Of a stretch of 64,000 nucleotides of DNA, positions 59,897 through 63,826 are shown in pieces. A model generated the notes under the pieces. That model was not told the DNA's origin and did no database searches. It was given only the letters and a program-made list of their open reading frames with translations. The DNA is from Escherichia phage myPSH1131. A program made the translations under genes and the position numbers. The stretch lies in sequence record MG983840.1; one strand, written 5' to 3'. Each line of letters begins with the position of its first letter. Positions within the stretch are counted from its first letter, which is position 1.

Positions 59897-60487
59897 AATC
59901 TTATTCCTTTCAGTGATAAGTTATATCGGGCAAGCCCATCAAGGCGATAGGCTTGAACAAATAACTTAATCAAGTAAACTAAACGATTTCCAACTGTTTC
60001 TTATTGGCACTACTCACCGTTGTAATTCGTCCGGTTGTACATTGATACACTACACGACGACCAAACGAGTTTTCTTAAACTGAAATATTAGTGATATTGC
60101 TATAAAGATACCTTTGAAATATAAATACCGTAGTTCCCGTAGTCGTAAACTCTGATTGAGCAAATGACGCTTTAACAGCCATTTTCCTAACTTCTTCTTT
60201 ACGCTGGTTAGTGTGTACAGTATCCCAATGATTGTTATCACGTTGGCGCTGTAATATCTTACTACATTTGCGATGGTTTCCCGTGCTGCGATGTTTCTCG
60301 CAAATAGGACACTTGCCAAAATTATTACTGAATATCATTTTCTCAATCCCAACTTTCTTAAGATACGGCCTAACGTTGTTTCTTGCGTGATAATATAGCT
60401 GATCGCTTCACGTTCCAACGTTTCAATAAGGCGCTAGGATTAAGATAGCGCCTTATGCCTTATTCTTGCTGCCTGACGGCCATAATC

Positions 60488-60964
60488 TCAGCCGCTTTTC
60501 AATTCTTCTGCATGTCCCTTGTTCGGGCAACCCTTGTAAAAGTTAGGATTATCGACTTCAATTTCACGACCTAGTGCAAAATTTTCGAAAGCATTTGACC
60601 AGCGAGCGCGGTTTTGTTCCATTTTGGTTTTAATTTGCGCTTCTTTCGCATCTTCTTTAGCTTTCGCCTCACCTTCCAGATTAATCCACTTTTTACGACC
60701 ATTTGCCGCATCGGTGTTAAACTTGATAGGAGTTAAGAAAGTAATTGCGGTAGCGATAACATCCATATCACGGAAACGTTCAGTTAACAGGAAGTCAACC
60801 GCCGCCTGCAATACATCTAACTTCTTACCGTTGCTACGAAAGTGCTGCAAATGCCCTAACAGGAAGTTAGAAACATCTTGTTTGATCGCCGCGTTATTAC
60901 TGCGAATGTTGTTAGCCAGAGCATTAAAACCGGATTCGTTAACCAGAGTAAAGATTTTAGCCAT
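60488..60964 (-). CDS. hypothetical protein (about 158 aa)
   Basis: Start at MAKIFTL after RBS GAAAGGTGAA (track ORF begins three codons earlier). Confidence 0.45.
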   Translation of the reverse strand: MAKIFTLVNESGFNALANNIRSNNAAIKQDVSNFLLGHLQHFRSNGKKLDVLQAAVDFLLTERFRDMDVIATAITFLTPIKFNTDAANGRKKWINLEGEAKAKEDAKEAQIKTKMEQNRARWSNAFENFALGREIEVDNPNFYKGCPNKGHAEELKSG

Positions 60965-61787
60965 AATATTCACCTTTCAATTGTAAGGGCGCTATTGCCC
61001 CGCTCTCTATGAGCTTGTTTAAGTCACTATTAACTTAACTATAACCACTCGTTGTTAAGTAGTTATAGGTAAGCGGGGCGGTCTTATCAGGAGTTAACCT
61101 TGCCGCCCCCTTATCCGTGATGTTTCATCTGGTATCTTTAATTAGTCGCTATAAACGAAGCCGACCTGATAGCGATGATCAATCATCACAATAAGGCTAT
61201 GCGTCCGACTCTATTTAATTACATTGCTGTAACCGTCGGCAATATCGTCTACTTTGTTTTCGCTCCCGCTTATCCTTTTGTATCAGCTCTCTATCGCTAG
61301 TCATCGCCCACTACGGGATACTATTGCGAAAGAGTCACTAACCGCCTAATATTCCGGCGTTTTATATCTTTCAGCAGGTTTACTACATAACCCGGCTATG
61401 TACTTTCATCCTATGATGAATCTCAAGCCGTTCACATCGTAAACGTTCGCATTAAACCTTATTGTTAAATAGCAATTTGCCACTTTTTAACCACTCCCCG
61501 CCGCTCTCAATTGAGCGTTAATTCGTCGGACTTGCCTACCCTGATTAACTTCTTTCACTGTAGCACCGTGTTAGCAATGACCGCCGCTACCCTTAACCGT
61601 GGGCGATTAGCTCAAGTCTTTGCGTGTACTCAATGAATCCGTTTATCAATGGTGACGTTTCCAGTAAGGGAATGTAAAACTGTTTACCCTGATAATTTAG
61701 GGAGTTTTACGCCGTTTTATCTGGTATGCTTTCCGATGGTTATTATCATCAAGCATATTCAACCGATATAGGAGAATGTTTAAATTA

Positions 61788-62417
61788 TTAAAGAGCGGTA
61801 AATCTATCAGTGTGCTTTCTCACACTATGCAACTGTTAGCCGTTGTTACGCTTTTCACTGAAGCGATGATTTGCTTAGTGAGTGCTCATTATGAATCATG
61901 TTGTTTTCGCTGTCAACCGCTTTTTAATCTTTTTTCGTCGTTCCCGCTATTGGGAGGATATATCAATCAGCTTTGTTTGATTGAAGATTAAGCGGTGAGG
62001 CTTAACTTATGATTCATATTGTTAAAGAGCGTTTTTAGCCTTTTATAGTGTCTGCTAATCACTGCATCATTGAAGGCTTACTGATTCATTAACAGGACGC
62101 CTAACCCTGAACTACTCGCTGCACTATGTGCCACCTTTCCCGCGATACGTTGATTTGGGAACTTGTTAGCGGTGTATCTGCTAACTTGTGGTTAGTATGG
62201 ACTACTTTAACCACGTTTGCAACTCTTTTTATCATCTTCTTTTAATTCCTTTCCCTTATCTCGCGTGAATCTATGCGAAAGGGCAAGATGATAAGTTTTT
62301 AAAGAGCGGGATTTTTTAAGTCATCGCTGACTATGCTCACTATATGTCAGGCTGTTTTCGGTGTCAATACTCTTTTTGAGAATATTTTCACTTTCTAGCC
62401 TGATTTTTAAAGAGCGG
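61788..62417. promoter_or_regulatory. four copies of TTAAAGAGCG(G) motif in low-coding region
   Basis: Motif at 61788, 62012, 62299, 62407 (plus strand); region 60974..62750 has almost no long ORFs. Confidence 0.35.
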
Positions 62418-62644
62418 GGCAATTTCTTGCCTTGTATGTTTTACATCGTACCCGATGAAATGAAGTATACGCTAATCAGATGAGGTTGCAATAGGGTAAA
62501 GCAAATTATTTTAAACTTTTTCACTATAGGAAGGTAAAAGAGCAGGCGCACGCGATACATCATAGAAAATGGCTTGTAAAGCGATATTTAGCGGCCTAAA
62601 ACGCATCACAACGAGCTAAAAGGGAGTAAGGCATACAATCACCT

Positions 62645-62675
62645 CATAAAAGAGAAAAGCCTCACTAGGAGGCTT
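62645..62675 (-). terminator. putative intrinsic terminator
   Basis: Minus-strand hairpin AGCCUC-CUAGU-GAGGCU followed by U-rich tract, just after stop of 62751..63122 gene. Confidence 0.45.
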
Positions 62676-62750
62676 ACAGGAAGGATTAGAGAATCAGATA
62701 AATTATGACCATAGGCATGACTACGGCACAATACAGGAGAAAGATTAAGC

Positions 62751-63122
62751 CTATGGATTTACACATTGACCGTTACCGGATGCCATTTCATTCATGGACT
62801 CATCAAAGAGCGTCAACGATGAGCGCATCAAGTGATCTACCGTGATTTGCTTACCAGTGGTTTCATTTACCAGTTGAATAGTTTTATCGTATGATTGTAC
62901 ATGTTCGAAATCATTCACATGTAAAATAATAACTTTAGGTGACTTTTTACCAGTTTCGTAATTCTCTACGAGATAGGTACACTGTAAACCGTCAACCGTA
63001 TCAGGGGAGAATGTTGCAGCCTTTACACTACCCATATCCGATAGCAGGACACCTAACAGGAGAACAACCAGAAAGAAGCCTACAACCGTTTTAACGACGA
63101 ATTTAATAAACCACATAGCCAA
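62751..63122 (-). CDS. small secreted or membrane-anchored protein
   Basis: N-terminal hydrophobic segment VVGFFLVVLLLGVLL. Confidence 0.4.
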   Translation of the reverse strand: MAMWFIKFVVKTVVGFFLVVLLLGVLLSDMGSVKAATFSPDTVDGLQCTYLVENYETGKKSPKVIILHVNDFEHVQSYDKTIQLVNETTGKQITVDHLMRSSLTLFDESMNEMASGNGQCVNP

Positions 63123-63309: not shown

Positions 63310-63585
63310 CTATTCATCGTTGCTATTCTCGCCAAAAAATGCTACGCTAATCTGTTCCACTTCTTCCAGCGACAGGAGAATCCCGCGTTGGGCTAAATAC
63401 TTCCCAACGGTTATATAATCTTGCACTAAACAGACAATAGGAAAGCGTATATTTTGAATCTCACCTTTGGAAAGAAAAGACAAATATCCAACGTCGATTG
63501 ATTCATCAAAGGACAATGTAACGCCACCGTAATTATGCGTATCAATTAACGCAATAGTTTCATTTCCCATTGGTATCATCCCCAA
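63310..63585 (-). CDS. hypothetical protein (91 aa)
   Basis: ORF in early-like region. Confidence 0.35.
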   Translation of the reverse strand: MGMIPMGNETIALIDTHNYGGVTLSFDESIDVGYLSFLSKGEIQNIRFPIVCLVQDYITVGKYLAQRGILLSLEEVEQISVAFFGENSNDE

Positions 63586-63826
63586 TCAGACCATGATTAA
63601 GCAGGTTAGCCAGCGACAAATCACCGTCAATATAGATTGATCTGAAATCATCGCGGGTAATTTCGAAATCAGCAAAGGCTAGCCAATCTTTAAGAGGCTG
63701 ATATTCCATCCTGCAAAAAGTGATAACAGGCAAGATTATCTGACCATCAAGTGTATTAAACAGGATAGAGCTTCCACCAACAAAACAAGAAAAGCCATTA
63801 GATAACTTAATTTCTTTGATAGCCAT
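63560..63826 (-). CDS. hypothetical protein (88 aa)
   Basis: ORF overlapping downstream gene start. Confidence 0.35.
   Translation of the reverse strand: MAIKEIKLSNGFSCFVGGSSILFNTLDGQIILPVITFCRMEYQPLKDWLAFADFEITRDDFRSIYIDGDLSLANLLNHGLIGDDTNGK

Follow-up and report, generated by a model that had tools for sequence, protein, structure and literature searches.

The boxA element of ribosomal RNA (rrn) operons is an RNA sequence that binds NusB and NusE and keeps RNA polymerase from stopping there. In phage lambda, a weaker boxA of the CGCUCUUA type is located 5' of the boxB recognized by N. In phage T7, a non-coding stretch close to the early-gene end of the genome holds tandem strong host-polymerase promoters, A1, A2, and A3, which precede gene 0.3; the early leader is short, with an RNase III site, and no boxA is known at these promoters. 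Phage phiEco32, with its own sigma factor, gp36, and an inhibitor, gp79, serves as a model for how phages control host RNA polymerase. Biochemically, rrn-type boxA binds NusB:NusE at 5 to 8 nM, compared to 80 to 90 nM for lambda nut (PMC2800207), and the BoxA/Nus complex prevents Rho termination of untranslated RNA, such as rRNA and clustered regularly interspaced short palindromic repeat (CRISPR) arrays (PMC7665894). The Nus/SuhB complex forms an RNA-chaperone ring at the polymerase exit channel (PMC8632103). Here, we describe an array of four boxA copies in the interval 60974-62750 of a 64,000-nucleotide (nt) stretch of Escherichia phage myPSH1131 (MG983840.1), the whole of which is referred to as the window. 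We consider it likely, from sequence comparison, that this interval is an early control region in which boxA provides Nus-factor-dependent, rrn-type processive antitermination of early transcription.

The window is that of a phiEco32-like coliphage (Kuravirus). Identity over the interval is 100% with Escherichia phages myPSH2311 and ES17, both of which match the window and have been proposed as therapeutic phages, and 84 to 99% with approximately 90 other phiEco32-like phages (Gordonclarkvirinae: Kuravirus, Nieuwekanaalvirus, and Suseptimavirus). It is the counterpart of the 1.9-kb spacer between phiEco32 genes 124 and 125 and of the gp119-gp120 gap of ES17; in phage SU10, the corresponding spacer is that between CDS120 and CDS121, where early promoters are listed (PMC4281155, text and Table S2). 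Because the flanking genes and the whole neighborhood belong to the minus strand, it is the reverse complement of the interval that matters biologically. The initial annotation described a low-coding region, and indeed the longest open reading frames within it are 71 amino acids (aa) on the plus strand and 44 aa on the minus strand. It also suggested a genome terminus. This does not agree with phiEco32, a genome of 77554 bp in which the spacer occupies 72787-74730 and the two ends carry 193-bp direct repeats as termini (PMC4281155). For a replication origin, which it suggested as well, nothing here speaks in favor or decisively against.

The repeated motif flagged in this interval, TTAAAGAGCG, occurs exactly on the plus strand at 61788, 62022, 62299, and 62407, the second copy having initially been placed at 62012, and no further exact copy is present on either strand of the window. 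The final base is G in three copies and T in the copy at 62022. A repeat search recovers the four as one family, all on one strand within ~630 bp and, as first described, irregularly spaced (234, 277, and 108 nt). [quoted passage not shown] Numbered from the copy nearest gene 124, these are boxA-1 (61786-61796; GCTCTTTAATA), boxA-2 (62020-62030; GCTCTTTAACA), boxA-3 (62297-62307), and boxA-4 (62405-62415), the last two both being GCTCTTTAAAA. Across both strands of the 64 kb, 4 matches to the consensus are found where 0.65 would be expected; a count of 4 was attained in 0 of 100 dinucleotide shuffles. When the search is extended to the remaining 10 kb of the ES17 genome, one more match appears, antisense within the terminase gene and in line with chance.

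The similarity to the E. coli rrnB leader continues into the flanks. boxA-2 with its flanks is CGCTCTTTAACAAT, compared to TGCTCTTTAACAAT in rrnB, which also aligns with the extended phage consensus CGCTCTTTAAnAAt. Written with separate flanks, the phage consensus is C-GCTCTTTAA-N-AAT and the corresponding rrnB leader sequence is TGCTCTTTAACAATTTA. In several relatives, the boxA copy nearest gene 124 is GCTCTTTAACAATTTA, with 16 consecutive bases shared with the rrnB leader. Two further sequences resemble boxA less closely. A two-mismatch sequence, TGCTCTTTTAC, is found at 62533-62543 (minus strand), between the upstream terminator and promoter PA described below; its position is conserved, and in several relatives it is CGCTCTTTTAC. 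A degenerate sequence, GCTATTTAACA (equivalent to TGCTATTTAACAA; repeat family D4), with A rather than C at position 4, is found at 61463-61473 (minus strand), where it hardly varies across all 20 relatives and is predicted to be within a hairpin (61491-61464). With a metagenomic contig (CYGL01003862.1), the match is limited to the leader RNA described below, from just upstream of this degenerate boxA onward.

To establish how boxA is conserved, cultured phages and contigs from IMG/VR and metagenomes were compared, with 14 phages mapped in detail. The motif is present in related genomes: every relative examined has three to five perfect boxA copies per spacer, all in sense orientation. Over 61 distinct sequence contexts of perfect copies, the 11-nt core is constant while the flanks are only ~40 to 50% conserved, and core position 2 is always C, though the consensus permits C or T. 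Upstream modules at the same cassette position are swapped between phages, with boxA and a few bases after it staying in place; the third boxA is preceded by four unrelated upstream sequences among phages. Because the core is constant while flanks and upstream modules vary, this pattern argues that selection acts on the 11- to 14-nt boxA core itself and that the copies are not the product of recent duplication. Promoters PB and PD of this spacer form a 34-nt repeat family (D3) with 79% identity, implying that the cassettes arose by duplication, and the boxA copies might accordingly be neutral remnants of a duplicated promoter cassette. However, the persistence of the core across unrelated upstream modules, invariant but for one T6C copy, contradicts neutral duplication, an explanation that we find scarcely credible.

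The boxA copies are arranged behind promoters. In the direction of transcription, the spacer begins with an intrinsic terminator, AAGCCTCCTAGTGAGGCTT followed by a T-run (62657-62675, minus strand), which closes the upstream right-end early operon (gene 128-125 homologues) and is likewise annotated or listed in SU10 and 4E8. Three recognizable sigma-70 promoters follow, all on the minus strand. PA (TTGCAA-16-TATACT, 9/12; 62464-62491) has a predicted start at ~62457, with boxA-4 at ~+43. PB (TTGACA-17-TATAGT, 11/12, with an A-rich upstream tract; 62339-62367) is predicted to start at ~62332, with boxA-3 at ~+26, and PD (TTGACA-17-CATAAT, 11/12; 61888-61916), which is present in all relatives, at ~61881, with boxA-1 at ~+86. 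These three boxA copies are therefore 26 to 86 nt past the predicted starts, on the transcribed strand. A possible degenerate promoter, read from the sequence, is seen at 62194-62222 (TTGCAA-17-CATACT, 8/12; minus strand) and is uncertain; at this site, relatives have a strong promoter (TTGACA-16-TAGAAT or TTGACAAGCTAACACGATGTGTTAAGCTGTAAATG) feeding the third boxA. In this genome, boxA-2 has lost its strong promoter, and boxA-4 is served by the weaker PA alone. Promoter-like matches across the region are not above chance (9 versus 7.7 expected), with the two 11/12 sites standing out. Three early promoters, PB and PD among their sequences, are listed in the SU10 paper "between CDS120 and CDS121" (PMC4281155, Table S2); for phiEco32, the paper reports three promoters in this spacer too, and a terminator that follows the upstream operon (PMC4281155).

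Sigma-70 promoters are expected to have their hexamers 16 to 18 nt apart; among relatives, the hexamers are kept while the spacer sequences vary; in PA, for instance, the TTGCA and GTATACT blocks are kept and the sequence in between varies. In the 14 relatives, each spacer promoter scoring 10 to 12/12 has a boxA 25 to 120 nt past its predicted start, with three exceptions, namely, one single-mismatch copy (IMGVR5) and two cases where a second promoter intervenes, and up to four tandem promoter-boxA cassettes are found per relative. An internal control is provided by the right-end early operon (genes 128-125): translated from its start, it has its own sigma-70 promoter and no boxA. The boxA copies are placed only ahead of a long untranslated stretch, the situation in which protection from Rho by BoxA/Nus is of known importance, as in rRNA and CRISPR arrays (PMC7665894). 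Between the spacer promoters and gene 124, no intrinsic terminator was found, so the leader would be contiguous with the early mRNA unless processed.

The initial annotation proposed a promoter or regulator-binding array driving early genes. Its promoters are borne out by PB and PD, which are sigma-70 promoters for the leftward early genes, but the motif is not part of them. A repeated 10- to 15-nt motif in a non-coding region beside promoters could in principle act at the DNA level, as an operator bound by a regulator of phage or host origin, such as the helix-turn-helix or sigma-like proteins first suggested, or as iterons of a replication origin. The motif, however, is non-palindromic and always in the direction of transcription, its distance from promoters ranges from -85 to +86, and its irregular spacing differs between relatives. 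It is identical to a well-defined RNA element, and the consensus of phage sigma gp36, tAATGTAtA (TAATGTATA), has no copy in 60974-62750 even when one mismatch is allowed. The surrounding structure is also strand specific and RNA-like, as quantified below. We conclude that the motif is an RNA signal on the opposite strand and not a DNA-binding site, a reading of it that we hold to be very improbable.

A small hairpin is found 2 to 12 nt upstream of every boxA copy in this genome, in each case on the minus strand. Hairpin A (GGCAA-GAAA-TTGCC; 62418-62431), read from the sequence, is 2 nt upstream of boxA-4, and relatives have GCAC-AACGAA-GTGC, GGCAC-TTA-GTGCC, or AGGCTA-n6-TAGCCT at this site instead. 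Hairpin B (GTCA-GCGA-TGAC, with a GNRA loop; 62320-62331), 12 nt upstream of boxA-3, has a covarying stem, with GTCA/TGAC changed to TTCA/TGAA in phiEco32 and 4E8. Hairpin C (TTAGC...GCTAA; 62035-62058), 4 nt upstream of boxA-2, belongs to a module common to KBNP1711, 4E8, and SGF2, with promoter modules in its place in other relatives. Two leader hairpins precede boxA-1 (61809-61845): CAAC...GTTG at 61845-61830 and, 12 nt upstream of the boxA, a boxB-like AGTGTG-AGAAAG-CACACT at 61826-61809, for which relatives have AACGTG/CACGTT, AGCGTG/CACGCT, or GAGGTG/CACCTC. RNAalifold analysis of 17 relatives shows that 3 of 7 pairs of the boxB-like hairpin are kept through two-sided changes (in 2, 5, and 7 sequences), as is 1 pair of the CAAC...GTTG hairpin. 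A 3' hairpin is seen beside boxA-2 only (TTAAGC...GCTTAA; 62005-61988). In the E. coli K-12 rrnB leader, the order is P2, hairpin GCCGCTGAGAAAAAGCGAAGCGGC, AC, and TGCTCTTTAACAATTTATCAG; a hairpin followed by boxA is the rrn order (boxB-boxA), the reverse of lambda nut (PMC8632103).

A hairpin beside almost every boxA copy is also what lambda-type nut sites would present, with boxA and the adjacent hairpin recognized by a phage N-like antiterminator that confers resistance to both intrinsic terminators and Rho. Consistent with this, strong intrinsic terminators downstream in the early region would require N-like activity for read-through, and the authors of a study of the related phage 7-11 expect some undefined antitermination strategy there (PMC8948821). 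Nevertheless, the hairpins are 5' of boxA, in rrn and not lambda order, and neither their sequence nor their loop is constant from cassette to cassette or from phage to phage, which does not fit recognition of boxB by a single peptide. Moreover, boxA here is of the rrn type (GCUCUUUAA), to which NusB:NusE binds >10-fold more tightly than to lambda nut boxA (PMC2800207). No N-like protein was identified, the neighboring proteins having no informative family match and the early proteins not having been searched systematically. We regard lambda-type nut sites as unlikely.

Past boxA-1, an untranslated, highly structured leader RNA of ~810 nt (60977-61785, minus strand) extends to the ribosome-binding site of gene 124. 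Its fold was predicted with RNAalifold on 19 distinct sequences, with column shuffles, the antisense strand, and slid partners as controls. The consensus energy is -227.7 for the sense strand, compared to -155.5 for antisense and -95.2 +/- 6.6 for column shuffles, with 228, 195, and 183 (mean) predicted pairs, respectively. Two-sided covariation supports 71 of the 228 sense pairs, versus 48 antisense and 11.6 (maximum, 19) in column shuffles; when the 3' partners are slid by 1 to 3 columns, only 5 to 11 covarying pairs and 32 to 45% pairing remain. On the sense strand, 99% of cells are standard pairs, and G-U cells outnumber A-C cells 532 to 9, a count partly biased by the fold having been predicted on that strand. 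The fold comprises three closed multi-helix domains, I (61778-61492), II (61463-61190), and III (61189-61117), followed by a GC-rich hairpin with an almost invariant 21-nt loop (61115-61069) and four further hairpins (61068-61039, 61038-61019, 61014-61002, and 61001-60986), all on the minus strand. An inverted repeat noted initially, TCGCTAT...ATAGCGA at 61145-61176, is present among the domain III hairpins, although covariation favors a slightly different register (GGTCG/CGACC to AATCG/CGATT).

The leader is conserved about as well as adjacent coding sequence, with 79 to 91% identity over 97 to 100% of its length, the most distant relatives included. A coding function was considered and rejected, as long open reading frames are missing and the substitutions follow no codon periodicity. 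Among 20 relatives, stop-free stretches on the sense strand mostly reach 40 aa at their longest, and in the lower two-thirds of the interval the variable columns number 114, 108, and 120 by position modulo 3. Rfam 15 gave no match at gathering thresholds over the whole window and, at E values up to 10, only chance-level scores of 12 to 20 bits in the spacer. No leader homologue was found in 5,426 E. coli genomes, nor was an invariant leader 24-mer found in 185,579 GTDB species genomes, and in IMG/VR and metagenomes the leader is seen in kuraviruses only. The structured leader is thus confined to this phage subfamily, and the ~0.8-kb RNA is, from the comparative fold, a candidate new large structured phage RNA. 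Two invariant single-stranded motifs, read on the sense strand, are repeated within it: ATACCAGAT(A/G)AAAC at 61714-61727 and 61122-61135, and ATAAAACG followed by a hairpin at 61707-61720 and 61352-61365. Both could be protein-binding or tertiary-contact sites.

From these observations, we infer Nus-factor binding, an antitermination effect, and a purpose for the leader RNA as follows. Host sigma-70 RNA polymerase would initiate past the upstream terminator at the tandem promoters, three of which are recognizable here and up to four in relatives. Some 25 to 90 nt from each predicted start, the nascent RNA would present a small hairpin and then boxA (GCUCUUUAANA), to which the host NusB-NusE(S10) dimer would bind. 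As on rrn operons, the bound dimer would nucleate a Nus complex (NusA, NusG, SuhB, and possibly S4) on the elongating polymerase, making it resistant to Rho and acting as a cotranscriptional RNA chaperone. The polymerase so modified could cross 0.8 to 1.5 kb of untranslated, structured leader to reach gene 124 and the leftward early genes. boxA-4 and boxA-2 would act on read-through transcripts or on those from weaker promoters. A more tentative extension is that the region mimics an rRNA operon, with massive, Rho-proof, chaperone-assisted synthesis of a large multi-domain RNA that acts in host takeover and is not merely the leader of gene 124. Such an RNA would, for example, sequester Nus factors, ribosomal proteins, or RNases or prime replication.

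Several observations weigh against antitermination of the rrn type as the function of this array. Neither boxA-4 nor boxA-2 has a promoter scoring at least 10/12 directly upstream. None of the four copies is followed by a 3' boxC-like element (GU-rich; TGTGTGGG in rrnB). The accessibility of boxA-1 is uncertain: it is unpaired in the span-limited consensus fold, but when RNAalifold is run with a short window, its 5' half is paired, without covariation, to AAAGCG upstream. The leader, being C-poor (18% C and 24% G) and strongly folded, may serve Rho poorly as a substrate, which weakens the case that it needs protection. Two strong minus-strand intrinsic terminators, at 59226-59209 (AGCCGCCTTTGAGCGGCT then T5) and 59141-59122 (GCCCCGGCTACGGCTGGGGC then T6), are found inside the early region, 1.7 to 1.8 kb past the gene 124 start, and early transcription has either to pass them or to begin anew; rrn-type complexes are generally poor suppressors of such terminators. 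In one metagenomic relative (IMGVR_UViG_3300045988_017452), the first-cassette boxA, ~1308 nt upstream of the gene 124 start, is GCTCCTTAAAA (T6C), the sole decayed orthologous copy found. Lastly, the boxA consensus is missing from the right-end early region (78000-89916) of the more distant Salmonella phage 7-11, which indicates that the array is specific to Gordonclarkvirinae and not general in the wider phiEco32-like group.

Several consensus boxA copies per transcript, driven by near-consensus promoters, might also titrate NusB, NusE, and SuhB away from host rrn operons, the array being a Nus-factor sink for host shut-off, or might act as a boxA repressor of the suhB kind. The 5 to 8 nM affinity of rrn-type boxA for NusB:NusE would suit a sink (PMC2800207), and BoxA-dependent repression is documented for suhB (PMC5725501). 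However, candidates of the suhB type were defined by a boxA no more than 50 nt from a start codon (PMC5725501), and here the nearest gene start is ~820 nt away. We consider a sink or repressor quite improbable as the main function, noting that titration and antitermination are compatible and not mutually exclusive.

The first gene after the leader is the phiEco32 gene 124 homologue, which with its Shine-Dalgarno sequence (AAAGGTGA) spans 60488-60976 on the minus strand. It is truncated, at ~158 to 161 aa compared to 299 aa in ES17, and downstream of ~60500 the match to ES17 is lost (327 mismatches in 900 nt over window positions 60065-60964, minus strand). Searches of PHROGs and Pfam with the flanking proteins returned family labels only, with no informative function, and there are no tRNA or transfer-messenger RNA genes across the window. 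Two small early proteins on the minus strand, one of 123 aa with an N-terminal hydrophobic segment (62751-63122) and one of 88 aa (63560-63826), are labeled "terminase" and "polymerase" by PHROGs as well as by several GenBank records. Their small size and the lack of a Pfam match make it probable that these labels are propagated misannotations.

The spacer, its promoters, and its terminator have already been published. In the literature covered, we found nothing linking boxA with phiEco32, the primary phiEco32 papers being outside that coverage, so that a prior mention is possible, and nothing describing boxA in virulent phages. The 7-11 paper from the phiEco32 laboratory (PMC8948821), the SU7 paper, and the gp79 structure paper mention no Nus, Rho, or boxA for these phages, and no description of the ~800-base leader RNA was found in the Kuravirus literature covered. 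We classify an rrn-type boxA that is arrayed and coupled to promoters, in a virulent phage without a known N, as a new arrangement. If our interpretation is correct, a virulent phage uses the host ribosomal antitermination machinery directly, without an N protein; a gap is filled in how host polymerase crosses >1 kb of untranslated RNA to reach early genes; and dependence on nusB, nusE, or suhB is predicted.

A scan of IMG/VR for two consensus boxA copies 101 to 131 nt apart returned 51 matches, most of which are tandem or coding repeats. In three uncultivated non-kuravirus contigs, L034 (9428-9625), L037 (10009-10461), and L056 (3777-4197), three to four copies of the boxA consensus share one strand and follow sigma-70-like promoters, their flanks being unrelated. 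In L034, the TTGACT...TATGCT-boxA cassettes are in tandem and number three; L037 combines a 12/12 promoter with a boxA after a tRNA-like 3' end, and L056 has a boxA, a hairpin (GCGCTGAAAAAGTGCGC), and a second boxA. There are hints, then, that the promoter-boxA array strategy is not unique to this subfamily.

The phage spacer can be compared to several described systems. The published phiEco32 and SU10 annotation of the same region (SU10 120-121) comprises three sigma-70 promoters and the upstream terminator, with boxA, Nus factors, Rho, and structured RNA unmentioned (PMC4281155). Like the T7 A1-A3 cluster, the spacer promoters feed one early transcription unit, but the leader here is ~0.8 kb with dozens of covarying helices. 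With lambda nutL and nutR, the phage shares boxA on early transcripts made by host RNA polymerase and, by our interpretation, the use of host Nus factors; it differs in having an rrn-type boxA, a hairpin 5' of boxA, arrayed sites, a virulent lifestyle, and no known N-like protein. The boxA sites of CRISPR arrays (Salmonella, Vibrio, and others) and of the suhB 5' untranslated region are likewise consensus boxA sequences outside rRNA, and they protect or regulate long untranslated transcripts with respect to Rho (PMC7665894, PMC5725501); those are single chromosomal copies, whereas here the array is phage borne and coupled to several promoters. The E. coli rrn leader shares with the phage tandem strong sigma-70 promoters, a hairpin, a boxA (phage CGCTCTTTAACAAT and rrnB TGCTCTTTAACAAT), and a long, highly structured untranslated RNA after it. 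Whereas each rrn leader has one boxA, the phage has four in ~630 bp and no boxC-like element, its hairpins are short and heterogeneous, and the RNA downstream bears no similarity to rRNA and continues into early genes that encode proteins.

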